Assembly: GCF_029267515.1 (NCBI RefSeq)
Contig: NZ_JAJUIS010000009.1
Location: 41,747 to 105,746 of the forward strand
DNA from: Seleniivibrio woodruffii
GTDB lineage: Bacteria > Chrysiogenota > Deferribacteres > Deferribacterales > Geovibrionaceae
Length of the DNA stretch: 64,000 nt
Direction of reading: 5' to 3'
The position numbers were made by a program, and so were the translations under genes. This document shows, in pieces, positions 2,341-40,823 of the stretch. The notes beneath the pieces were generated by a model that worked only from the letters and a program-made list of their open reading frames with translations, made no database searches and was not told where the DNA came from. The first letter of the stretch is position 1. Each line of letters begins with the position of its first letter.

Positions 2341-3474
2341 TCAGGCGGAAAAAACTTTCCCCATCTCGTCAAGCACCTCTTTAGCGGAGCGGGTATACTT
2401 AAAATCATTACTGATATCAACGTTTTTACCCTGCACAAACACCTGAAAATTGGTACCGAAACCGCCTTCAGGCATTATAAGCGCCTTGACGGACTGCTTT
2501 TGCAGGTCTGTTTTGCAGGCGGAAATCTCTTCCAGTATGCCGGACTGTACCAGATACAGCCATTGGGGCATATACGCAAGAGGGTTGAGCCCATTCTGCG
2601 AGCCATAAAGCGACAGAGAGGTGAAATCCACGAATGCGGTTATGTCCTGATAGCCTATGCGCTCAAAGAAATCGTTGTTCTGTGTGTGGCGGTAATAGCA
2701 GGTGACTGTTCCGTCCCGTCTGTAGGACTGATAGAGCATTGGTGCTTCAAAACCGTAATCGATGGTGACAACAACAGCCTTGCCCAACTTTTCTGCCAGC
2801 GCGTGCACCCAGCCGACCATATCAAGATTGATGTCAACTATCTGGGTCTCCACAACTTTCAGATTGATAGCGTCAAGAAACTCTTTGAGGCGGGGAGTCG
2901 AAAGCTCATCGGGAAAAAAGCGCAGCTTTCCGTCAACCTCTTTAACGTAAAGCTCTTTCAACTCGTCGTTCATGCGTATAACGCGGTGAACGGGGAATGC
3001 GTCCACAAGCTCGTTGCTGTAGAACACGCCGGAAAAATTATTCAGCTCTTCAAAGCTCTTCCAGACGACCTTGCCCTTATGCTCTTTCTCAATGAGCTCT
3101 TTCTGACGTTTAATGAGGTATCCGCTCTTCTCTATAATGGTGTAAGACAGTATGTCATATATCTCTTTTTCGTTCACTTTCAGATAGTTGAGAATGTCGT
3201 TGGCAAGCATCCCGCTGCCCGCACCCATCTCGCAGAAGGCGTTTTCCAGTTTCAGAGTTTTTATCATGTACACAAAGGATTTCGCCAGGGTGCGCCCGAA
3301 AGATTCGGATGCGTTTACTGAAGTATAGAAACTGCCCTGCTGTCCGAAGGGGTTCTCTTTCTGATAGTATCCCATCCCCTCTTTGTAAAGGGCGATGTCC
3401 ATAAATTCGGCAAAGGTTATCTGTCCTTTTTCGCGAATCAGGTTCTCAACGTAGGTTTGAAGGCTTGTATCCAC
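2341..3474 (-). CDS. SAM-dependent methyltransferase, MidA/NDUFAF7 (DUF185) family
   Basis: 377 aa. N-terminal ITFAEFMDIALY...GYY and SAM motif I CEMGAGSGMLANDIL are typical of the family. The start overlaps the tonB-like stop by 1 nt. Confidence 0.75.
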   Translation of the reverse strand: MDTSLQTYVENLIREKGQITFAEFMDIALYKEGMGYYQKENPFGQQGSFYTSVNASESFGRTLAKSFVYMIKTLKLENAFCEMGAGSGMLANDILNYLKVNEKEIYDILSYTIIEKSGYLIKRQKELIEKEHKGKVVWKSFEELNNFSGVFYSNELVDAFPVHRVIRMNDELKELYVKEVDGKLRFFPDELSTPRLKEFLDAINLKVVETQIVDINLDMVGWVHALAEKLGKAVVVTIDYGFEAPMLYQSYRRDGTVTCYYRHTQNNDFFERIGYQDITAFVDFTSLSLYGSQNGLNPLAYMPQWLYLVQSGILEEISACKTDLQKQSVKALIMPEGGFGTNFQVFVQGKNVDISNDFKYTRSAKEVLDEMGKVFSA

Positions 3475-4613: not shown

Positions 4614-5231
4614 TTAGTCCTCTTTAACGACCGCGTTCATTATCCTGCTTGCGGATTTTTCAAGCTCAGTTGTAATGCGTTCACTTCGGAAACGCACAAA
4701 ATAGTAGACAGCCATTGTGGGGATAGCAACGCAAAGACCTGCCGCCGTTGTTATCAGCGCTTCGGCAATACCCGCCGCAAGCGGCTGTGCGTTTCCCGCA
4801 CCATAAGTTGCAAGAGCCATAAAAGTTTTTATCATACCGAATACAGTACCGAGGAATCCCAGCATAGGAGCTATAGTTGATATCGCCTGAAGTGTCGGCA
4901 GAAAGCGTTCAAGACGTTTCGCCTGAAATCTGCCAGATTCCTCCGCAGTCTCAGCAAGCCTAGCGAAAGGCAGGTTCAGGTTTTTCAGAATATCAGAGGC
5001 TATTATGGATATAGAGGATTTATTCTCGGCACACATGGTCTTCGCGGCTTCGATGTCCTTGTTGTTCAGCTTATCCATCAGCCTTTCCATGAAGTCTTTG
5101 GGGACAAAGTTCGATTCACGCAGGCTCACCAGCCTTTCAAAAAAAACAGCAAGAGCAATGACCGAGAGCAGCACTATAGGGTACATCAGCACCCCGCCCT
5201 TTTGCATCAGCTCCATATTCAACTCGAACAT
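4614..5231 (-). CDS. exbB: MotA/TolQ/ExbB proton-channel protein
   Basis: 205 aa with three TM segments and the conserved C-terminal block LGFLGTVFGMIKTF...AGIAEALITTAAGL. Abuts exbD with no spacer. Confidence 0.9.
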   Translation of the reverse strand: MFELNMELMQKGGVLMYPIVLLSVIALAVFFERLVSLRESNFVPKDFMERLMDKLNNKDIEAAKTMCAENKSSISIIASDILKNLNLPFARLAETAEESGRFQAKRLERFLPTLQAISTIAPMLGFLGTVFGMIKTFMALATYGAGNAQPLAAGIAEALITTAAGLCVAIPTMAVYYFVRFRSERITTELEKSASRIMNAVVKED

Positions 5232-30003: not shown

Positions 30004-31177
30004 GGTTCAGGTGACACCTGCCGCAGAGAAGAGCATAAAAAAAGGACATCCGTGGGTGTACGCCGACGCAGTGCTGAAAACCAGCCGCGAAGCAGGCGCA
30101 GGGGACATCGCCGCCATATTCAGTGCAAAACGCGAATTTATAGGACTGGGGCTGTACGACCCCACATCTCCAATACGCATACGCATCCTCTCAACCAAAC
30201 CGAAAACCACCATAGATGAGGCATGGCTGAAAACCGCCATGCAGAATTCCATATCAAAAAGACAACATCTTATAGATGATAAGCTCACTGACGGTTTCCG
30301 CCTTATACATGGCGAAAACGACGGTTTGCCCGGTCTGGTTGCGGATATTTATCGTAACGTTCTCGTCATAAAACTCGATACGACCGCATGGATGCCCCAT
30401 CTGGAGCTTATCTGCATGGTATTCAGAGAACTTATAAGCCCACTTACCATAATTCTGAGGCTATCGCGCACAGTGGCTCCGCAGTACGGATATTCCGATG
30501 GCTGTCTGCTGTACGGCGAACCGGTCGGCGGCGCGGTTATATTTTCGGAAAACGGCATACTCTTCGAGGCAGACCCTGTGAAAGGGCAGAAGACCGGATT
30601 CTTCCTTGACCAGAGAGATAACAGAGCGAGAGCCGGAAAACTGGCAAAGGGCAGAGACGTTCTGAATATATTTGCATACAACGGCGGTTTTTCTCTCTAT
30701 GCGGCTAAGGGCGGCGCAAAGTCCGTCATAAGCCTCGACATCGCTCCGCAGGCTCTGGAAGCGGCTAAACGCAATTTCGCACTGAACCCCGACCTCACCT
30801 GTCTCCACGAGACCCTCTGCGCGGACGCGTTCGAGGCTATGAAACAGCTTGCGGACAAAGGCAGAAAATTCGGAATGGTGATTGTCGATCCACCCTCTTT
30901 CGCGCGAAAACAGGCGGACGTACCAAATGCGCTTGCGGCATACGAAAAGCTGACAAAGCTGGCGGTAAACCTCACGTCAAAGGATGGCATCCTTATTTGT
31001 GCATCATGCTCGGCGCGGGTTGGTGCAGATGATTTCTTCGAAACGGTTCTCAAAACCGTGAAGCGTTCGGGACGCTGCTTTAAAGAAACGGAAAGAACGA
31101 GAAACGCCCCCGATCATCCGGTCGGATTCAACGAGGGCGCTTATCTGAAATGTATCTATTTAAAAATTACTTCCTGA
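29978..31177 (+). CDS. RlmI-like class I SAM-dependent rRNA methyltransferase (PUA-like N-domain plus MTase)
   Basis: Start set at ATG 29978 (AAGGAG RBS). KKGHPWVYADAV N-terminal signature, DGLPGLVADIY, FFLDQRDNR and the VLNIFAYNGGFS SAM motif. Confidence 0.8.
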   Translation: MPPIAPSVSVQVTPAAEKSIKKGHPWVYADAVLKTSREAGAGDIAAIFSAKREFIGLGLYDPTSPIRIRILSTKPKTTIDEAWLKTAMQNSISKRQHLIDDKLTDGFRLIHGENDGLPGLVADIYRNVLVIKLDTTAWMPHLELICMVFRELISPLTIILRLSRTVAPQYGYSDGCLLYGEPVGGAVIFSENGILFEADPVKGQKTGFFLDQRDNRARAGKLAKGRDVLNIFAYNGGFSLYAAKGGAKSVISLDIAPQALEAAKRNFALNPDLTCLHETLCADAFEAMKQLADKGRKFGMVIVDPPSFARKQADVPNALAAYEKLTKLAVNLTSKDGILICASCSARVGADDFFETVLKTVKRSGRCFKETERTRNAPDHPVGFNEGAYLKCIYLKITS

Positions 31178-31686: not shown

Positions 31687-32685
31687 CTATTTTCTATATA
31701 CCGAAAACCCTACATACAACAGTATCAGAATCCATATGAAAGCTATAGGCACCAGCACCTTGAGATAGAAAGGCCAGTCAGCGAAACCGAAAAACTGTTT
31801 TTTCTCATAAAGCCCGATGTCCAGCGACCGCATAAGCTCGTATATGCTGATATAGCTTACAGGCATTATCCATCCGGCATAGTTGCCGTCTTTCAAAACC
31901 TGCGAATCGCGCGGAATATTAGTAAGAATGTTCTGCATATCCGTTACAGTCTGCTCGTCCGCGTTTTTACCAGCCAAAAAAGCCCATTCAGGATAAAGTC
32001 TTGTGCTGTGAAGAAGCGGCAGTCCGTCGGAAACGCTGTTTATAACCTTTATATCACTGAGCTTTATCCTGCCCTTTTTCGCCATGCTTTCAAGGATGCC
32101 GGAACGCACACTGCCCATATCCGCGCTTCCGGCAAGAACATAGTCAACAACCTTGTCCTGCGTACCGGTAAAGACAACCTTGAAGTCTTTGTTCTCTTTC
32201 AGCCCGGCATCGCGAATCTCTTTCAGCCCCATCCAATATGCACCGAACCCCTCCGGATCGATACCTGCAAACACTTTTCCTTTGATATCCCTGAAATTAT
32301 TTATATCTTTTCTGTCGGCGCGGGTGAAAACAGCAGACGAAAAATAAGAAACCGTCTTGCCGTTGTATTCCCTGAGTTCCGTAAGCATTATCCGTGCGCC
32401 GTATTTCTCTTGAAGGATAACGGCTTCCGCCGGCTGGGTTATAACGAAATCAAGCTGCCCGGTCTCCATCAGCCTGCGCATCTGCTCAAACCCGAAAACC
32501 GGCATAAGGTAAAATGAATATTTCGTCTGTTGCTGTTCAAGATAGGCAAGTGTCGGCGACCACATCTGATATGCTTCCTGAATACCGTTGTAAGCCCTGA
32601 CCCCCACAGTGAAAACCTTTTCCCTGTCAGCGTGAGCAAAATTCGTAATGAGTACAAACATAAACAAAAGAATCATTTTGCGCAT
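31687..32685 (-). CDS. PhnD-type substrate-binding protein with a C-terminal membrane anchor
   Basis: Signal peptide, PhnD-like core (FTVGVRAYNG...LDFVITQPAEAV...FAGIDPEGFGAYW) and a C-terminal TM helix VLVPIAFIWILILLYVGFSVY. Starts 13 nt after the kinase gene. Confidence 0.7.
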   Translation of the reverse strand: MRKMILLFMFVLITNFAHADREKVFTVGVRAYNGIQEAYQMWSPTLAYLEQQQTKYSFYLMPVFGFEQMRRLMETGQLDFVITQPAEAVILQEKYGARIMLTELREYNGKTVSYFSSAVFTRADRKDINNFRDIKGKVFAGIDPEGFGAYWMGLKEIRDAGLKENKDFKVVFTGTQDKVVDYVLAGSADMGSVRSGILESMAKKGRIKLSDIKVINSVSDGLPLLHSTRLYPEWAFLAGKNADEQTVTDMQNILTNIPRDSQVLKDGNYAGWIMPVSYISIYELMRSLDIGLYEKKQFFGFADWPFYLKVLVPIAFIWILILLYVGFSVYRK

Positions 32686-32697
32686 AAAATTCCTCGC

Positions 32698-34674
32698 CTA
32701 GGCAGTGAATTTCGGCAGAACCACTGTGAACATCGCACCTTCAATTGTGTTTGAAGCGGAAATTCTGCCTTTCATATGGTTCTCTATTATGGCTCTGGTC
32801 ATATACAGACCGATTCCGGTACCCTCTTCGTTCTGTTTCGTGGTGAAATAAGGTTCAAACATCCGCGCCATAACTGCCTCGTCGATGCCGCCGCCATTGT
32901 CAGATATGGAGAAAGATATTTCATGTTCATCGGTTTCGAGGATTATATCTATTATTCCTTCATTAATTTTTCCGGCACGTATCTCTTTTATTATAGCGTC
33001 CTTTGCGTTCTGAATGATGTTCAGCACAGCCTGTTTCATCTCACCAGGAAATCCGCTTACAATCGCCGTATCAGCCAGTTTCCCTGGGTTTTCGCATACG
33101 CCTTCCGCATATACAAAAATATCGCTGCCACTCCTGCATGTATAGTTAAGCGATATGCCGTTGTATTTCATCTGGGCGTTTATCAGCCTTATAACCTCCA
33201 CCATACTGGTTATGATTGAAAACTGTTTTTCCGTTTTGTCCGCACGGAAAAAGTTGCGGAAATCGTCTATAGTGGTGGACATATGCTGGAGCATAGTCAT
33301 TATCTTCTCTTCAAACTCGTTCGCCTCTTCCATATCCAGATTGCCTTCGCGCTGACCTATAACATAGCTCTGAACAGCAAGCCCTATTATGTTCAGGGGC
33401 TGCCGCCACTGGTGGGCTATAGCGTTCACCATACGTCCCATATCGACAAATTTCTGCTGTTCGAAAAGGAGCTGTTCGTTCTTCTGTCTCAGTCCGGTTT
33501 CAAGTTCAACCATGTTTTTCAGCTTAACGTTCATGTCCTCAAGCTCGGTTTCACGCTGCTTTATACGCTTTATAAGCTCGTTGTACGCAGAAACAAGATC
33601 CCCGATTTCGTCACTCCTTTTTATGGGAAGAAACTGATCATAATCAAGTGATTCCGCCTTTCGCACAGCGACCTGAAGCTCTTTCAGAGGCTTTGTAACG
33701 GCAAGATTCAACAGGAAAAAACTGACGGGCACCACAAGCACCAGTACAAAAAAGGAAATCATTATAAATCCCATAAGGATGCTCTGGCGTATGTCCCGCA
33801 CTGCGTAGTCGTGGGCGGAGAATCCGAAATCCACCGAGGTATCCCCGTCTATCACCCATTTCTGGAAATACACGTTCATACCGTCTGAACGCTGTATGCG
33901 CTCGGCTGTGGTGAAACTTTCGGGAAACAGTGTCGTATGATCCGTGTCAGGTCTGAATGAACTGTCAAAAACTGTCCATCCGTTGATATAATATGTGAAG
34001 CCCATTCCCGTTGCCGCCTCAACCTGACGTACAAAGGATGAATCGAGAAAATCAGCTGACATAACGGTCATACGGCTTCCGCCGCGGACAGCCTCTGCTG
34101 CGTACTGAACAGTCAATACGCCGGATATGTCGGTAAAGCTGTACCCTCTGCGGACGTGTCTGGAATTTGCCAGAAAATCTTTTATAAAATCAACTCCGCC
34201 GAAACCGCTCATTATTTCGCCGTTTTTAATTATTACCGGTTTACCCGCATAATCCATGTAACCACCGTAATAGTCACCGTTTTCTCTGAATGCAAAGACC
34301 CGCAGCTTCATTTCGCTGTCATAAACAGCCAGAGCCCCTACGTTTCCAAGATTCGCCATCTCCGACAGCTTGGATGCCTCGCGGAAAAGCCCAGTTTCGG
34401 TGGAAAAATCCATTATTCCCAAATAATCCGAGCCGGATATCACGTCTGTATATTTAAGAAGATCAACCTGCAAACTTTTGATTTTTTCATTCAGAACTGA
34501 AAAAGAAGTGCGGAAGGAAGACGCTGTACGCCAGTTGATATTTGACACAGTCATAGAATACAGTGTAACTGCAAAAACCGCGCACATTAACAGTATTGTG
34601 AGCATCACAAAAATAAACAGTTTTGTTCTGACACTCTTAATTTCCGGAATAATCATCCAGCTTTCTCCGGGCAT
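32698..34674 (-). CDS. Membrane sensor histidine kinase with a large periplasmic domain
   Basis: TM, ~270-aa periplasmic region, TM, HAMP, coiled coil, H-box AIAHQWRQPLN and an ATPase domain (DNGGGI..., GTGIGLYM). Confidence 0.85.
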   Translation of the reverse strand: MPGESWMIIPEIKSVRTKLFIFVMLTILLMCAVFAVTLYSMTVSNINWRTASSFRTSFSVLNEKIKSLQVDLLKYTDVISGSDYLGIMDFSTETGLFREASKLSEMANLGNVGALAVYDSEMKLRVFAFRENGDYYGGYMDYAGKPVIIKNGEIMSGFGGVDFIKDFLANSRHVRRGYSFTDISGVLTVQYAAEAVRGGSRMTVMSADFLDSSFVRQVEAATGMGFTYYINGWTVFDSSFRPDTDHTTLFPESFTTAERIQRSDGMNVYFQKWVIDGDTSVDFGFSAHDYAVRDIRQSILMGFIMISFFVLVLVVPVSFFLLNLAVTKPLKELQVAVRKAESLDYDQFLPIKRSDEIGDLVSAYNELIKRIKQRETELEDMNVKLKNMVELETGLRQKNEQLLFEQQKFVDMGRMVNAIAHQWRQPLNIIGLAVQSYVIGQREGNLDMEEANEFEEKIMTMLQHMSTTIDDFRNFFRADKTEKQFSIITSMVEVIRLINAQMKYNGISLNYTCRSGSDIFVYAEGVCENPGKLADTAIVSGFPGEMKQAVLNIIQNAKDAIIKEIRAGKINEGIIDIILETDEHEISFSISDNGGGIDEAVMARMFEPYFTTKQNEEGTGIGLYMTRAIIENHMKGRISASNTIEGAMFTVVLPKFTA

Positions 34675-34904
34675 ACCGTCACTTGGTTTAACGGAACGGA
34701 ATATATTAAAAAGCTAACCTTTGACTATGCTTCTATGATTCAATTTTATATTATTTTAGAAATATTCACAATAGATTTAGAAATAATCCCCTTAGTAAAG
34801 CTCATATGTCAGTATTTAATTAATCATAGATTCATAAATTCAACTCTCCATTATATAAAATATTGTGCAATCACAACAATATATATAGTTATTACAATAC
34901 TCTG

Positions 34905-34961
34905 TGGCGAAAAACAGCCACAGCACAAACGCAACACAGCCCAATTGGCTGATTTTCGCCA
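34905..34961. promoter_or_regulatory. Pair of 16-bp dyads; candidate enhancer (UAS) for the sigma-54 promoter
   Basis: TGGCGAAAAACAGCCA (34905-34920) and, on the opposite strand, TGGCGAAAATCAGCCA (34946-34961). Their centres are 41 bp apart and ~150 and ~109 bp upstream of the -24 GG. Confidence 0.5.
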
Positions 34962-35060
34962 TACAAGAACCAGTATAAAAATGCGCATCCGGCTCTCGAA
35001 TATTTTTTTAAGGCTTTGACAGCAGATATTTACAAAACACGCACATGGATTTTACAATTT

Positions 35061-35076
35061 TGGCACAGGCATTGCT
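35061..35076 (+). promoter_or_regulatory. Sigma-54 (-24/-12) promoter
   Basis: TGGCAC-AGGCA-TTGCT, with GG at 35062-35063 and GC at 35074-35075 at the correct spacing. Confidence 0.75.
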
Positions 35077-35086
35077 CTAATAATTA

Positions 35087-35281
35087 CTGAAACGTACGCA
35101 ATAGGTATCAGATTTAAACATGGGTTCGGCGTAATGCCGAGGGGGAGTGTCTTGTATTCGGCGGGCGAAATGCCCGCTGACAGGACAAAAAGAAACAAAT
35201 AGCCACAAATAAATAGATGCATAGGCGGTATCAACCGCTTTTCGCCCTGCTGAGGTCTCCAATACCGGCAGGGCTTTTTTA
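35087..35281 (+). ncRNA. Candidate sigma-54-dependent small RNA (~195 nt), unrecognised family
   Basis: No credible ORF. Stems at 35125-35141, 35158-35180 and 35223-35240, an A/C-rich unpaired stretch at 35181-35222, and a terminator at the 3' end. The 5' end is inferred from promoter geometry. Confidence 0.6.
35244..35281 (+). terminator. Intrinsic terminator of the candidate sRNA
   Basis: GCCCTGC / GCAGGGC stem, extendable to 9 bp, followed by TTTTTT. Confidence 0.8.
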
Positions 35282-35322
35282 TATCCCCTCTTTTTGTTTA
35301 TATACGTCTTATTACATCGTCA

Positions 35323-35381
35323 GAATTTTGATTTCTAGGGTCATGTACACTCACGTACACTCCCCGTCTAAATCAAAATTC
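35323..35381. repeat. 12-bp perfect inverted repeat enclosing two 10-bp tandem repeats
   Basis: GAATTTTGATTT (35323-35334) and AAATCAAAATTC (35370-35381). Inside are GTACACTCAC and GTACACTCCC (35345-35364). Confidence 0.8.
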
Positions 35382-35568
35382 TTCCTTGTACTACTCGCAT
35401 CTAAACAAAAATCTGCTTGAATCCTCGTTCTGCTGCGTCACTTCGTTCATCGCGAAGATAAATAAAAAATCCGGCTTCGCGAGGAGCGAAAGAGACGCGG
35501 CGATCTCATCTTAGTTTGCTTTTATACTCTATCTCTAAATGCGTTAAATGGTCTATACGAAAAACAAA

Positions 35569-36933
35569 TCAGACCAAACCGTATTTTTCCAGCTTATACC
35601 GCAGAGTGCCCCTTGGAATATTCAGCAGTTTCGACGTCCGCAGGACGTTAGCACCCGTAATGACAAGTGCTTCGGAAAGAAGCTGTTTCTCGACACTTTC
35701 AATGGCTGATTCAAAATCCATACCATCAGGCGGTATATGCAAATTGCTCTGGGTTCCGATTTTCGGTTTTTCGCCTGATATCTCACGCGGAAGCATGTCC
35801 GGCGTGATTATCTCACGGCTGTACATGATACAGATCCGCTCGACGATATTCTTCATTTCACGGATATTTCCCGGCCATGGATAAGCCTTGAACAGTTCCA
35901 GCGCCTCTTTCGAAACCTCGCGAATATCCTTTTTAAACTCGGTTCTGTAACGTTTTATAAAATGGTCAAGCAGCGGTGCGATATCCTCCGTCCGCTCTCT
36001 GAGCGGCGGCAGAGACAGCGGAAAAACATTAAGCCTGTAAAACAGATCTTCCCTGAACTCTTTGTTGTTTATTGCCTCACGCAGATCCTTGTTTGTGGCT
36101 GCAATTATACGCACGTCTATATCTATGTTTCTGGTGCTGCCCAGTCTGCGTATCTTTCTCTCTTCCAGCACACGCAGGAACTTAACCTGCAAATTCATAT
36201 CCATTTCGCCTATCTCGTCAAGAAACACAGTGCCGCCCGCTGCCTCTTCCAGAAGTCCGGTTTTTCTTGTCTTGGCATCGGTGAACGCTCCCTTTTCGTG
36301 CCCGAAAAGCTCTGATTCCAGAAGGTTATATGGAAGCGAACCGCAGTTTATGTCTACAAACGGCTTGTCCTTTCTTGGAGAAAGATTGTGTATCGCTCTG
36401 GACACAACCTCCTTTCCCGTGCCGCTCTCACCGGTAATAAGCACTGTGGCTGTCTCGTGCTTTGCCACCTCGCGTATCTTCATGAAAACATCCGTCATGG
36501 CAGGGCTTACACCGACAACCTCCGGCAGAACAGAACCGTCCCGTTTAAATGATTTCAACTCCCGTTTAAGGCTTCTTGTTTCCAGCGCAAGCCGAACGAT
36601 AAGGTGCAGCGCGTCCGCTTTGAAAGGTTTTTTGATATAGTCGTAGGCGCCCATTTTAAGCGCCTCCACGGCGCTTTCAACGGTTCCGTAGCCTGTTATG
36701 ATTATTACCAGAATTTCTGGATCTATCTCTTTCATCTCACGCAGTATGTCTATACCGCTGTCCCTGCCAAGGTTCAGATCGAGCAGAACAAGGTCGATAT
36801 CGCCCTCGGTCAGCATATGTATCGATTCGTGCCTGTTCTGGGCAACGGCAACGTCGTAACCTTTAAGCGTGAGAGTTCTTTCGAGATTTTCGCGAATAAA
36901 AATTTCATCATCGACAACGAGTATTTTTTCCAT
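35569..36933 (-). CDS. NtrC-family sigma-54-dependent response regulator
   Basis: Start set at MEKILVVDDE (ATG 36933). Receiver domain, AAA+ domain with GESGTGKE and ESELFGHEKGAFTDA, and a C-terminal HTH (LNIPRGTLRYKLEKYGL). Confidence 0.92.
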   Translation of the reverse strand: MEKILVVDDEIFIRENLERTLTLKGYDVAVAQNRHESIHMLTEGDIDLVLLDLNLGRDSGIDILREMKEIDPEILVIIITGYGTVESAVEALKMGAYDYIKKPFKADALHLIVRLALETRSLKRELKSFKRDGSVLPEVVGVSPAMTDVFMKIREVAKHETATVLITGESGTGKEVVSRAIHNLSPRKDKPFVDINCGSLPYNLLESELFGHEKGAFTDAKTRKTGLLEEAAGGTVFLDEIGEMDMNLQVKFLRVLEERKIRRLGSTRNIDIDVRIIAATNKDLREAINNKEFREDLFYRLNVFPLSLPPLRERTEDIAPLLDHFIKRYRTEFKKDIREVSKEALELFKAYPWPGNIREMKNIVERICIMYSREIITPDMLPREISGEKPKIGTQSNLHIPPDGMDFESAIESVEKQLLSEALVITGANVLRTSKLLNIPRGTLRYKLEKYGLV

Positions 36934-36965
36934 ATCAAATCCATGCGAATAATTGGGTGAAATAA

Positions 36966-36993
36966 AGTATAGGCGATTATGAAAATATAGCAA
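36966..36993 (-). promoter_or_regulatory. Possible internal sigma-70-type promoter for the activator gene
   Basis: On the minus strand: TTGCTA (36993-36988), 16 nt, TATACT (36971-36966), 32 nt before the ATG. Confidence 0.4.
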
Positions 36994-37001
36994 GAAAAAC
37001 A

Positions 37002-37017
37002 TGGCGGTTTTTCGCCA
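37002..37017 (-). promoter_or_regulatory. Third copy of the 16-bp dyad, possibly also an attenuator hairpin
   Basis: Reads TGGCGAAAAACCGCCA on the minus strand, immediately after the kinase stop codon (37018-37020). As RNA it forms AUGGCG-AAAAAC-CGCCAU followed by GUUUUUCUU. Confidence 0.45.
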
Positions 37018-37932
37018 TCAACCCAGATTGAAAGTTATAAGAAACTCGGTACCCTTTCCCACCTCGCTTGAAACCGTTATCTCGCCGCCGTGTCTGCGCA
37101 CAATATCGCGCACCACTGAAAGCCCTATGCCTGTTCCGCCCTGTTTGTCTGTGAAAAACGGTTCGAAAATCATATGAACTTTTTCTTCCGGTATGCCGGA
37201 GCCTGTATCTTCGAAATGAATATATATCTTATTATCAGCAGTTTTAGCGGTCACTGTCAGATTTCCGCCACTTTCCATTGCCTGAACGGCGTTTATCACA
37301 AGATTATGAAACGCCTGCCGCAGTTTGCTGCCGTCCGCAAGGATATGCGGTATGCCCGGTTCTATCTCTGTGCGAACCACGACCCTGTTTATTACACAGA
37401 GCTTATGGTTGAGCATCAGCACTTCCGAAAGAACGACAGCAATGTCCTCTTCGCCCATGGCGCGGACATCACTTCCTGAATATGTGAGAACATCCGTAAG
37501 CATCTGCTCAAGACGTTCAATCTCAGATATCGCCATCCTAAGAAGATGCCTTTCATTCTCGGCACAGCTCAGCCTGTCGTGGATATCGTCCAGCAGAACA
37601 CCGATTCCCGTGAGAGGGTTGCGCATCTCGTGCGCCAGAGAGGGCATTATTTCACCCAGAGACATAAGTTTAGAGGCACGTTCGCGCTCAGCGGCGTTCT
37701 CAAGAATAACGAGTCTGTGCCCGCTTTCACCGACGTTTTCGGATGTCACGGAATAGTCGGATGCCAAACCGCCTTTAAAGAGGCGCAGTGTTTCCCCGTC
37801 CGCAACATTTTTAAGTTTTGCGCCGGCATCCGTCTCTTTCAGAAGCAGACTGCCGACCCCGTCAGCATAGACAGTGTCCCCGTTTCCGTCGATAATAATA
37901 ATGGCTCTGTAAAACTTCAGAAATCTGTTCAT
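37018..37932 (-). CDS. Soluble histidine kinase with a short PAS-like N-terminus
   Basis: No TM segment. ~85-aa N-terminal region (IIIIDGNGDTVYADG), H-box LAHEMRNPLTGI and an ATPase domain (DTGSGIP..., GGTGIGLSV). Confidence 0.88.
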   Translation of the reverse strand: MNRFLKFYRAIIIIDGNGDTVYADGVGSLLLKETDAGAKLKNVADGETLRLFKGGLASDYSVTSENVGESGHRLVILENAAERERASKLMSLGEIMPSLAHEMRNPLTGIGVLLDDIHDRLSCAENERHLLRMAISEIERLEQMLTDVLTYSGSDVRAMGEEDIAVVLSEVLMLNHKLCVINRVVVRTEIEPGIPHILADGSKLRQAFHNLVINAVQAMESGGNLTVTAKTADNKIYIHFEDTGSGIPEEKVHMIFEPFFTDKQGGTGIGLSVVRDIVRRHGGEITVSSEVGKGTEFLITFNLG

Positions 37933-39564
37933 CTACACCCTGAATCTTTCCACCATAGTGTTAAGATGTGCCGCCTGCTGTGCAAGCTGATCTATCGTAC
38001 TGTTAACTTCTGTCATAGTGTTTACGTTCTGTTCCAGCCCTTCTGACATCTGCACAGCGTTTTCGTTTACGTTCTGGATACCCTCGCTCTGTTCGCCGAT
38101 AGCAAGCCGCACGGCACCGATGCTGAGATTCACGTCGGTAATTGCATCCACAATTTTTCTGAACGAAGCATCCGTTTGCTCGATAAGTTTATTGCCCTGT
38201 TCAATATTCTTCTCTGCGTCGCCCATTTCAGTGGACGCGGACTTTGTATCCGCGACAAAAGTTCTGATTATAGAACCAATCTCAGATGTTGCGGACTGGG
38301 TTCTTTCCGCCAGTTTGCGCACTTCGTCGGCAACAACGGCAAAGCCCCTGCCCGCCTCTCCAGCTCTTGCCGCCTCGATTGCGGCGTTGAGCGCCAGAAG
38401 GTTGGTCTGGTCGGCAATATCGCTTATCACGTTGAGAATTTCACCTATCTGTCCCGAAGAGGTAGTAAGGTTTTCGATGGTTTCGGAAAGTTTTCCGGTG
38501 GAATGTGTAATGCCCGCCATTCCTTTTTTCACCATTTCAAGTTTTTCCGCACCGTCTTTCGTACTGTCCACAGCCTCGTTCAGTGGAACGGAAGCCTGCT
38601 GTATATTGTCCACCATGACGTCACTGGTGGCACCTATCTCGCTTATGGCGGAAGCTATGGATTCAACCTGACGGGAGCGCTCCATAAAGGTCTCAGTCAT
38701 ATTTCTCATAGTGGAGTTAAGCTCCTCCGCACTTACGCTGACCCCAGCGGCATTCTCCTTAACGTCGGATACTATTTCCTGAATACTGCTGACGAAGCTG
38801 TCGAAATAGCCTGACATCTCGCCTATCTCGTCTTTGGTTTTTATGTTTATGCGGCGGGTGAGGTCTCCCTTGCCGCCTGTGAAATCTTTAAGAACATGTA
38901 TAAAGCTGTAAAGCCTTTTGATAACCGCTGTGTGCACGAAAAAGTATATCAGACCTGACAGAACGGCTATTGAGATTGACGTGAAATAAACCCAGAATGC
39001 TGCGGAACTTACCGCAGTTCTGTTAATATCGGAAGCCAGTTCATATTCGTTTGTGATGGAGGATATCAGAAGCTCTATTTCGTTGCTGTTTTCGCTGGCA
39101 ATACCGTCTATCCTGTCATCAAGCGCAGCAAACGTTTCGTTGTCCGCTCCGTTTTTTACGGCGTTGAAAAGTTCACCTTCAACAACCTCTTTCTGTTTCG
39201 CGAACATAGCCAGAATCTTTTCAATATTCGCCTTTTCCTCGTCAGTATCTGCATATTCACGGAAGGTCGGCGTCATCTCTTCTATATCTTTGTAATATCC
39301 GTTCAGTTCTTCCAGAAGTTCAGGGGCAACCTGCATGGAATCTTTATCGACTATTACGTCCATCGCAGCCAGTGCTATGCCGCTGTTATAAGTTTTCAGT
39401 TGATTAACATCCAGTATCTGTCTCGCCCTTTCATCCTGCGTTTCCGAAGCGGATTCTGCGCCGGACAGTTTTATGCCGAGATACACGGCTGTGAACACAG
39501 AAACTACGAATAATACAGAAAAAAATAAATTAAGTTTTGCCCTGATAGTCATGTGGCACCTCAA
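37933..39564 (-). CDS. Methyl-accepting chemotaxis protein (helical periplasmic domain, HAMP, signalling domain)
   Basis: Two TM segments flank a ~170-aa helical domain. Contains the highly conserved hairpin tip ...[40 protein letters not shown]. Its TAG stop is immediately followed by the kinase ATG. Confidence 0.9.
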
Positions 39565-39629: not shown

Positions 39630-40823
39630 TCATATTCTCCCTTTGCGGCGCAGCCAGATAAAGAGAAACGGCCATATAACCAGCACAAAGAGAGATACGC
39701 AGGCAATGAGCAGACCGTAAAATCGCAGAGGGTCTGCATGGGGCAGTGTCACAAGCCACATGCTGAGAGCGCCCGCCATGAACTGATAAAAAACCATGAA
39801 CGACGAAGCGGAACCTATGTCCGTGCGTACCTGTTCAAGAACAAGGCTGGAACTGACAGGTCTGTTGAACCCTGTGAAAAAAGCGAAGATGAACATCCCC
39901 GCAGCAAAGAACTCATATCCGCGGTGATTGAACAGCAGAACGAAGAGACCGCCCGCAAACGCACCGATAAATCCGACAGAAAGCATAAGCGACTGTTTCA
40001 GCCTGACCGAGAGCTTTGCGCTTGCAAAAGAACCCGCCATGGCACAGACGGCGTTCATGCCGAAGAGGATACTGAAAAGCTGACCGGAAAGCCCGTAGAT
40101 ATTGATATATGCGATGGGTGAAAACGCTATGAATCCGTAAAAAGGGGAGATGGAAAGTCCCATAACCGTGGTTGCTGCAGCATATTCCCTGTTGAACAGC
40201 AGAGACTTATACCGCAGAAACATCGAAAGCACGCTGCCCTTTATAAACTCTTTCGCCGTCTCCTCGTATCCCATTGCGATAATTGACGTTATAAGTACCA
40301 TGGCGCCCTGAGTGAAGAATATCAGTCTCCACGAACCAAACCCAAGCAGCATCGTACCTATGGACGGCGCCACCATGGGCGCAACGGCGAGGATAACACC
40401 GATGTACGCCAGCGCTTTCTGACGCTCCGCACCATCATATTTATCCCTGCATATCGCCATGACCATCGCTGATGGTGCAGCGGCACCCATACCCTGAATA
40501 ACCCGGAACATTATCAGCATGTAAGGATTCGCGGAAAGTCCGCACAGAAAGCTGGACGCCACGAACAGCCACAACCCGAAAAGGAGAACAGGTCTGCGCC
40601 CTATCCTGTCCGAAAGGGGACCGAAAAGCAGCAGAGACGAGCTGAAAGACGCAAACCAGAGCACCAGTGAAAGGTTCACTACGGAAACATGGACGTTCCA
40701 GTCGGCGGCTATCTTAGGGATGGCGGCAAGATACATATCGGTAGCAAGAGGAGGCGTTGCGCCTATCAGAGACAAAAATATAATATAAAGTGACGGATTT
40801 TTTATTTTGAATGAACTGAACAT
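39630..40823 (-). CDS. MFS transporter, Bcr/CflA-like drug-efflux subfamily
   Basis: 397 aa, 12 TM segments, with the motif LSDRIGRRPVLLFGL between TM2 and TM3. Confidence 0.85.
   Translation of the reverse strand: MFSSFKIKNPSLYIIFLSLIGATPPLATDMYLAAIPKIAADWNVHVSVVNLSLVLWFASFSSSLLLFGPLSDRIGRRPVLLFGLWLFVASSFLCGLSANPYMLIMFRVIQGMGAAAPSAMVMAICRDKYDGAERQKALAYIGVILAVAPMVAPSIGTMLLGFGSWRLIFFTQGAMVLITSIIAMGYEETAKEFIKGSVLSMFLRYKSLLFNREYAAATTVMGLSISPFYGFIAFSPIAYINIYGLSGQLFSILFGMNAVCAMAGSFASAKLSVRLKQSLMLSVGFIGAFAGGLFVLLFNHRGYEFFAAGMFIFAFFTGFNRPVSSSLVLEQVRTDIGSASSFMVFYQFMAGALSMWLVTLPHADPLRFYGLLIACVSLFVLVIWPFLFIWLRRKGRI

Follow-up and report, generated by a model that had tools for sequence, protein, structure and literature searches.

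The closest described counterparts of the locus analysed here are the CbrA/CbrB-CrcZ system of Pseudomonas, the GlrK/GlrR (QseE/QseF)-GlmY system of Enterobacteriaceae and the LuxO-Qrr system of Vibrio, in each of which small RNA (sRNA) is transcribed from a sigma-54 promoter. Transcription of crcZ depends on sigma-54 and on CbrB. GlrR recognises TGTC-N10-GACA in several dyads 100-200 bp upstream of the glmY sigma-54 promoter, and one LuxO dyad site also mediates the autorepression of luxO. In this study, a 64,000-nucleotide stretch of Seleniivibrio woodruffii DNA (contig NZ_JAJUIS010000009.1; the whole stretch is referred to as the window) was analysed. It carries three near-identical dyads of 16 bp, all intergenic, all within 2.1 kb and all flanking a single gene for an NtrC-type regulator. 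These dyads are very probably operator and enhancer sites for dimers of the adjacent regulator, where sites 1 and 2 would switch on an sRNA and site 3 would serve autoregulation. The elements concerned are the following.

34905..34920, + reading: site 1, predicted distal upstream activating dyad TGGCGAAAAACAGCCA (matrix 19.8 bits)
34946..34961: site 2, predicted proximal upstream activating dyad, TGGCGAAAATCAGCCA in the - reading and TGGCTGATTTTCGCCA in the + reading (matrix 22.3 bits, the best in the window)
35061..35076, + strand: predicted sigma-54 (-24/-12) promoter TGGCACAGGCATTGCT, predicted transcription start at ~35087
35087..35280, + strand: predicted sRNA of ~194 nt (fold, covariance model and ten orthologous copies)
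35569..36933, - strand: response regulator and sigma-54 activator of 454 aa (receiver, AAA+ sigma-54 interaction domain, Fis-type HTH_8)
36966..36993, - strand: predicted sigma-70-type promoter of the activator gene, TTGCTA-16-TATACT
37002..37017, - reading: site 3, predicted autoregulatory dyad TGGCGAAAAACCGCCA (matrix 21.0 bits)
37018..37932, - strand: cognate histidine kinase of 304 aa, core only (HisKA and HATPase)

The dyads and the regulator predicted to read them

Scans for dyads, matrix matches and promoters in Seleniivibrio covered the 64-kb window. The three 16-mers were found where the initial annotation had placed them, as exact TGGCGAAAANCNGCCA dyads at 34905, 34946 and 37002, and its description of the copies was borne out: sites 2 and 3 each differ from site 1 at only one of the 16 positions, and all three are TGGC-N8-GCCA dyads. 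At site 1 the palindrome is longer and reads CTGTGGC...GCCACAG over 34902-34923. When up to two mismatches to TGGCGAAAANCNGCCA were allowed, a search that had been proposed on the scale of the genome as a check on the motif, six matches were obtained in the window compared with 0.62 +/- 0.83 in dinucleotide-preserving shuffles (n=100), and 0 of 100 shuffles reached six. TGGC-N8-GCCA occurs as five dyads in the 64 kb, with about 0.9 expected by chance; three of them flank the regulator gene, and the other two (30224 and 49032) lie inside coding sequences (CDSs). One of the latter is the full dyad TGGCTGAAAACCGCCA at 30224..30239, within the CDS of a PUA/SAM-methyltransferase (matrix 19.7 bits). 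The earlier statement that only half-sites occur elsewhere was therefore wrong, although the half-sites listed with it, at 30310 and 32076, do exist. The dyad at 30224 is retained as TGGCTGAAAACGGCCA in L001, one of the homologous loci, which are cited here by their L numbers. It is possibly an extra binding site or a chance occurrence, and it stands outside the circuit assignment.

In total, 169 homologous loci were collected, and the full-length product was extracted for 155 of them. The scan of metagenomes contributed only homologues of up to 70% identity, and the informative Deferribacterales loci came from exact-protein look-ups. The recognition helix of the activator in the window is PRGTLRYKLEKY. 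The helix PRGTLRYK(L/M)EKY is present in all 93 homologues with at least 52% identity, which belong to Deferribacterales, Desulfuromonadales, Geobacterales and Syntrophobacterales, and the 62 homologues with at most 48% identity (Bdellovibrionota, Nitrospirota and others) have different helices. Up to 300 bp from the ends of orthologous genes, the density of perfect TGGC-N8-GCCA dyads is 1.10 per kb, 17-fold that in the remainder of these loci (0.066 per kb), and the 35.7 kb adjoining the 62 non-orthologues contained none. At least one perfect dyad was found in 45 of the 93 PRGTLRYK loci, and in 65 when one mismatch was allowed. The eight central positions of the dyad, which were left free in the search, show an R-A-W-W-T-Y pattern, and the family consensus is TGGC-S-R-A-W-W-T-Y-S-GCCA. 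A weight matrix built from non-Seleniivibrio loci only ranked sites 2, 3 and 1, in this order, as the top three matches in the 64 kb, followed by the dyad at 30224, and none of the mononucleotide shuffles of the window reached 19.8 bits.

As far as sequence comparison can reach, the co-variation of motif and recognition helix is the strongest evidence short of experiment, and it points to binding of the dyads by the regulator. The initial proposal, in which the adjacent NtrC-type regulator recognises the dyad and is thereby tied to both the sRNA promoter and autoregulation, is supported by this co-occurrence with the helix across 155 loci and by the matrix ranks, and further by the site-promoter positions kept in ten Deferribacterales loci and by the joint movement of the dyads with an inverted cassette, both described below.

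The activator matches Sigma54_activat at 5.5e-71 and HTH_8 at 3.8e-08, and the receiver and a Walker A motif are present. It has 94-96% identity with proteins from S. woodruffii and from a Seleniivibrio metagenome-assembled genome, and its closest solved relatives are NtrC1 and NtrC4 of Aquifex. An ATG at 37002, inside site 3, was rejected as its start, with the receiver domain beginning 26 residues in and the orthologous start being the ATG at 36933. The scores for the NCBIfam equivalogs AtoC, GlrR and LuxO were 472, 363 and 363 against cut-offs of 714, 763 and 800, respectively, and the score for the NtrC equivalog was far below its cut-off. The protein is a DctD/AtoC-like NtrC-family sigma-54 activator that, judged by these scores, is placed outside the AtoC, GlrR, LuxO and NtrC families; because its GlrR score falls so far short, it is not regarded as a GlrR orthologue.

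Predicted sigma-54 promoter, small RNA and locus layout

The element TGGCACAGGCATTGCT is the sole exact match to TGGCAC-N5-TTGCW in the 64 kb, and its TGGCA...TTGC core is invariant across seven aligned loci, which suggests that the sRNA promoter is sigma-54-dependent. Measured from the second G of the -24 GG (35063), the centre of site 1 lies 150.5 bp and that of site 2 109.5 bp upstream, in agreement with the ~150 and ~109 bp given in the initial annotation. The distance from the distal dyad to the -24 G is 150-156 bp in the sRNA loci measured, with the exception of L168 (188.5 bp), and the proximal dyad is found at 85-118 bp; in orthologous loci the upstream dyads lie 85-224 bp from the -24 G. 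The arrangement is that of upstream activating sites, usually two or more dyads of ~16-18 bp placed ~80-200 bp upstream of a -24 GG/-12 GC promoter.

In the proposed circuit, the partner kinase would phosphorylate the regulator, which would then assemble on sites 1 and 2 and contact the sigma-54 RNA polymerase at 35061-35076 by DNA looping. Hydrolysis of ATP by the regulator would open the promoter and yield the structured sRNA of ~194 nt, and regulator bound at site 3, 8 nt upstream of its own -35, would give autoregulation. Two elements within the predicted sRNA are used in the comparison that follows.

35215-35223, + strand: invariant sRNA motif AGAUGCAUA, just before a GCGG...CCGC hairpin
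35244-35280, + strand: predicted intrinsic terminator of the sRNA

The sRNA region folds better than 200 of 200 shuffles (z = -3.8). The features kept among the copies are an A-rich single-stranded linker, AGAUGCAUA, the penultimate GCGG...CCGC hairpin and a U-tailed terminator. A covariance model of the 3' 128 nt gave a single match in the window (35158-35283, 128 bits) and one match in each of the nine other sRNA loci (69-129 bits), and no match in Desulfuromonadales loci. In the alignment of the ten sequences, 93% of the cells are paired, compensatory double changes occur in 8 of 22 pairs, and the covariation score is 0.353 versus at most 0.121 for slid controls. No conserved open reading frame was found within the sRNA. 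Against Rfam 15, window positions 33000-38000 had no match at E <= 1, and L161, L163 and L164 had none that reached the gathering score. On this comparative evidence the RNA constitutes a conserved family in Deferribacterota that is new to Rfam, and its conserved features would be those expected of an Hfq-type trans-acting sRNA. The 64-kb window contains no paralogous copies, and no targets complementary to the invariant AGAUGCAUAG were found within it. In the literature searched, no published descriptions of the dyad motif, of the sRNA or of sigma-54 sRNAs in Deferribacteres or Geobacter were found, nor of a riboregulator in Deferribacterota. An origin of the sRNA from a transporter 3' untranslated region was considered and rejected: a 32-bit match at the 3' end of the DASS transporter gene in L165 comprises the terminator only, and the invariant core is missing.

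Ten Deferribacterales loci are of the sRNA type (the window, L001, L002, L161-L164 and L166-L168), with regulators 72-95% identical to that of the window in the other loci. The same order of elements is common to 10 of 10: kinase stop, dyad, 7-8 nt, sigma-70 promoter, activator gene, two dyads, -24/-12 promoter, and an RNA of ~190 nt with its terminator. L168, whose regulator is 77% identical, also has the gene order of the window, with chemoreceptor, kinase, regulator, sRNA region, orphan kinase and periplasmic binding protein. Its cassette of dyads, promoter and sRNA is co-directional with the regulator gene, as in every other non-Seleniivibrio locus. In the window and in L001, this ~0.4-kb cassette alone is inverted; the genes on either side have not turned with it, and the dyads are still upstream of the promoter. 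The dyads thus moved with the cassette, which suggests that dyads, promoter and RNA function together as a single unit. No inverted repeats that could represent a recombination signature were found flanking the inverted cassette.

Outside the sRNA-type loci, the corresponding slot precedes other genes. In L165 and L169, with regulators 68-70% identical, and in many Desulfuromonadales, the dyad and -24/-12 slot precedes a gene for a DASS transporter of ~580 aa, and in Geobacterales the dyad-promoter slot precedes a gene for a TRAP DctP protein. L165 and the window have CorA, redoxin and methyltransferase neighbours in common. In some Desulfuromonadales loci (L083:4169-4342, L089:4563-4712, L094:4563-4802 and L097:4524-4637), a sigma-54 promoter after the activator gene precedes an untranslated RNA of ~110-240 nt. 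This RNA closes with a conserved terminator whose loop has an invariant, anti-Shine-Dalgarno-like CCUCCU, and it is unrelated to the Deferribacterales sRNA. Rfam gave no match for this second sRNA type, and only cyclic di-GMP (c-di-GMP) riboswitches turned up. These are c-di-GMP-I-GGC aptamers (RF03167, 62-67 bits) located just downstream of the activator gene in L032:7559-7649 and L018:7497-7588, and similar sequence is also present in the Desulfuromonadales loci L014, L017 and L021.

Site 3, proposed autoregulation and alternative explanations

The first base of site 3 directly follows the kinase stop codon (TGA, 37020-37018), and 8 nt separate its other end from the -35 hexamer, so that the reported position of the site right after the kinase gene and just upstream of TTGCTA-16-TATACT was confirmed. 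In eight aligned kinase-regulator intergenic regions, the dyad, the TTG of the -35 and the -10 are in register and the remainder diverges. The -35 variants in the ten loci are TTGCTA, TTGATA, TTGCAT and TTGACG, followed after ~17 nt by a TATAAT-like -10, and the position of site 3 is kept in all Deferribacterales loci. By eye, this placement was also seen in many Desulfuromonadales loci, where a dyad lies just a few bases ahead of a -35-like TTG for the regulator gene and is often accompanied by another one 62 bp further upstream. A copy of the site thus adjoins the -35/-10 of the regulator's own gene in conserved register, as expected of an autoregulatory operator, and site 3 is predicted to be the operator for autoregulation of this internal sigma-70 promoter. 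NtrC-type proteins at sigma-70 promoters usually repress (glnAp1/glnL, pspF, luxO). Two dyads precede the activator gene in L161:3423-3463 and L162:3423-3463, and the second, TGACGAATTTTCGCCA, overlaps the -35 and the spacer, which suggests repression by occlusion. The autoregulation would somewhat more probably be negative than positive.

Several observations weigh against the proposed circuit. On the family matrix the CDS dyad at 30224 is as good as site 1, and there is no -24/-12 promoter near it. The spacing between the two upstream dyads varies. The 41 bp between the centres of sites 1 and 2 that the initial annotation reported was confirmed, but its interpretation as a feature of about four helical turns does not extend beyond Seleniivibrio: the spacing is 70-71 bp in the other sRNA loci, 79 bp in L165, and ~22 and 62 bp in Geomonas and Desulfuromonadales, often with non-integral helical turns. 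No conserved consensus for an integration host factor site lies between dyads and promoter. The activator loop reads GAFTDA (residues ~212-217) instead of the canonical GAFTGA, a variant that is common to 60 of the 93 orthologues, the others having GAFTNA, GSFTGA or GAFTSA. L163 uses TGTCG/CGACA half-sites, TGTCGAATTTTCGACA at 3441-3456 and TGTCGGAAATCCGCCA at 4880-4895; its recognition helix is identical, suggesting that the third base of the half-site is tolerant to change. Finally, the position of site 3, with its centre near -52 of a sigma-70 promoter, would suit activation via the alpha subunit as well as repression.

An alternative explanation, raised in the initial annotation as an attenuator hairpin, is that site 3 acts mainly as RNA and not by binding a protein: the kinase transcript would close with a hairpin (AUGGCG-AAAAAC-CGCCAU, then GUUUUUCUU) that works as an intrinsic terminator or attenuator and separates the expression of kinase and activator. 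A consensus scan indeed flagged the site as terminator-like, with six pairs, four of them G-C, and the tail GTTTTTCTTG; the predicted hairpin has -9.1 kcal/mol, and a U-rich tail after the dyad is also seen in L002, L164, L166 and L167. Yet the hairpin is hardly distinguished from shuffled sequence (z = -1.1, with 29 of 200 shuffles folding as well), and the same is true of most of its orthologous counterparts, which fold no better than shuffles. About half of the orthologous loci lack the U-run, among them L161 and L162 (CACATAATC) and L163 (GTTAATAG), and it is poor in L165, whereas the dyad is kept throughout. A stable G+C-rich hairpin with a U-run conserved in the orthologues, as a terminator would show, was not found. 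The conserved quantity is the distance from the dyad to the -35, which is relevant to control at the DNA level and not to termination, and sites 1 and 2 share the sequence of site 3 yet mark no gene end in the window. A mainly RNA-level function of site 3 is consequently considered improbable, and a weak dual role as operator and hairpin is possible in Seleniivibrio.

Two further explanations would detach the dyads from the adjacent regulator or from regulation altogether. The divergent orphan kinase gene (32698-34674) shares its intergenic region with sites 1 and 2, which lie 230-290 bp upstream of it, and transcription from a sigma-70-like match on the - strand (34999-34972) would begin beside site 2; the dyads could then be read by another regulator, for example an unlinked partner of that kinase, and control its operon (from 34674) instead of the sRNA. 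This is very unlikely given L168, where the orphan kinase gene is downstream of and co-directional with the sRNA and the dyads are outside its upstream region, and given L002, L161-L164, L166 and L167, where the orphan kinase is absent from the locus and dyads, promoter and sRNA are retained. The dyads track the recognition helix of the activator across phyla, and the inversion of the cassette together with its dyads likewise argues against their serving the divergent kinase gene. The view of the dyads as accidental palindromes, or as members of a dispersed, repetitive palindromic family without regulatory function, draws on the one or so TGGC-N8-GCCA match per 64 kb expected by chance and on the two dyads inside CDSs (30224 and 49032). 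It scarcely merits belief against three near-identical intergenic copies around one regulator gene, shuffles that reach neither the observed count nor the matrix scores, and a dyad enrichment beside orthologous genes in other orders and phyla with conserved promoter register. Many scattered, gene-independent copies, as in a repetitive element, were not seen within the 64-kb window, which holds the five dyads only.

Gene neighbourhood and comparison with known systems

The remaining features of the locus are as follows.

31687-32685, - strand: phosphonate-binding-type periplasmic protein
32698-34674, - strand: orphan kinase of 658 aa (HAMP-HisKA-HATPase)
35475..35491, - strand: terminator-like hairpin downstream of the activator gene, convergent with the sRNA
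37933-39564, - strand: methyl-accepting chemotaxis protein
39630-40823, - strand: MFS transporter

Orthologous kinases of the system have 798-820 aa and comprise a periplasmic dCache_1 sensor, HAMP, HisKA and HATPase, whereas the Seleniivibrio kinase is without dCache_1 and HAMP. The kinase of L161 and L162 is shorter still, with 216 aa. The ATG of the 304-aa kinase gene abuts the TAG stop of the chemoreceptor gene, and in L001 the two genes overlap by 1 nt. The chemoreceptor was considered as the lost sensor of the kinase and rejected, as it does not resemble the ancestral dCache kinase to any meaningful degree. The 658-aa kinase was likewise rejected as the true partner of the activator, being 27% identical to the ancestral kinase compared with 38% for the 304-aa kinase. 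The periplasmic protein shows a 130-bit match to the N-terminal portion of TtrS, a tetrathionate sensor, and together with the adjoining 658-aa kinase it looks like a split TtrS-type sensor, with no response regulator beside the pair. The same pair also follows the sRNA in L168. Right after the sRNA terminator, nested inverted repeats occupy 35291-35411 (TTTTTGTTTATATACG/CGCATCTAAACAAAAA and a perfect 13-nt pair AGAATTTTGATTT/AAATCAAAATTCT); jointly these would fold into a long hairpin within the spacer that separates the sRNA gene from the convergent activator gene.

The dCache_1 kinases and the DASS and TRAP targets in orthologous loci suggest that the ancestral system resembled a DctB/DctD-type organic-acid sensor governing uptake, and the ancestral signal was probably an organic acid. 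In Geobacter sulfurreducens, an activator gene is reported to adjoin the sigma-54-dependent C4-dicarboxylate transporter gene dcuB (PMC2725144), an arrangement that fits the proposed ancestral role. In one Deferribacterales subclade the direct output would have been turned into an sRNA, in place of the transporter gene found elsewhere. A broader joint claim is put forward only tentatively: that the single direct output of an organic-acid-type two-component system was switched from a DASS/TRAP transporter to an sRNA, that an independent switch to the CCUCCU-loop RNA took place in some Desulfuromonadales, and that in Seleniivibrio the cassette was inverted, the kinase sensor was lost and the kinase became translationally coupled to the chemoreceptor gene. 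If this were true, the sRNA would be the system's sole route of action, a post-transcriptional regulator of carbon or energy metabolism much like CbrAB-CrcZ. The locus also offers an evolutionary case in which one enhancer-promoter slot precedes, depending on the lineage, a transporter gene or an sRNA. The motif TGGC-SRAWWTYS-GCCA would further make regulons predictable genome-wide for a widespread, uncharacterised group of sigma-54 activators, which ranges over Deferribacterales, Desulfuromonadales, Geobacterales and Syntrophobacterales.

With CbrA/CbrB-CrcZ the locus shares a kinase and an NtrC-family activator, upstream activator sites, an sRNA gene with a sigma-54 promoter directly downstream of the activator gene, which is the layout of L002, L161-L164 and L166-L168, and a long A-rich single-stranded stretch in the sRNA. 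There is no sequence or Rfam relationship to CrcZ, the recognition motif differs, and the cassette in the window is inverted relative to the activator gene; the RNA has ~190 nt and one A-rich linker, whereas CrcZ has ~400 nt and six A-rich motifs. The likeness drawn here is one of circuit layout, with no claim to Hfq/Crc sequestration. In GlrK/GlrR-GlmY, too, the sRNA gene adjoins the two-component operon and has a sigma-54 promoter with upstream regulator dyads, but here the dyad is TGGC-N8-GCCA, there are two sites instead of three, the RNA is unrelated, and an overlapping sigma-70 promoter is not evident. LuxO-Qrr is alike in its NtrC-family regulator, dyad sites and sigma-54 sRNAs; the LuxO site, however, is TTGCA-N3-TGCAA, and the Qrr RNAs are unrelated, ~100 nt long and present in several copies, compared with one sRNA copy in the window.

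The DctB/DctD-type systems resemble the orthologous loci in their dCache_1-HAMP-HisKA-HATPase kinases and in DASS or TRAP-DctP genes behind a -24/-12 promoter with two upstream dyads. The window and nine related loci differ in having an sRNA in the transporter slot, and Seleniivibrio additionally in a kinase without sensor domain. For the sigma-54 regulome of Desulfovibrio vulgaris, comparative genomics placed four non-coding RNAs in activator regulons (PMC4641369); no match to the dyad or sRNA of this locus was found in the text of that paper. The kind of evidence and the circuit are alike in the two cases, whereas phylum, regulators, motifs and RNAs differ. Current understanding is not overturned by the present finding: the circuit type, in which a two-component system acts on a sigma-54 sRNA and on its own expression, is already well known, and the Seleniivibrio locus is a new example of it in a little-studied phylum.

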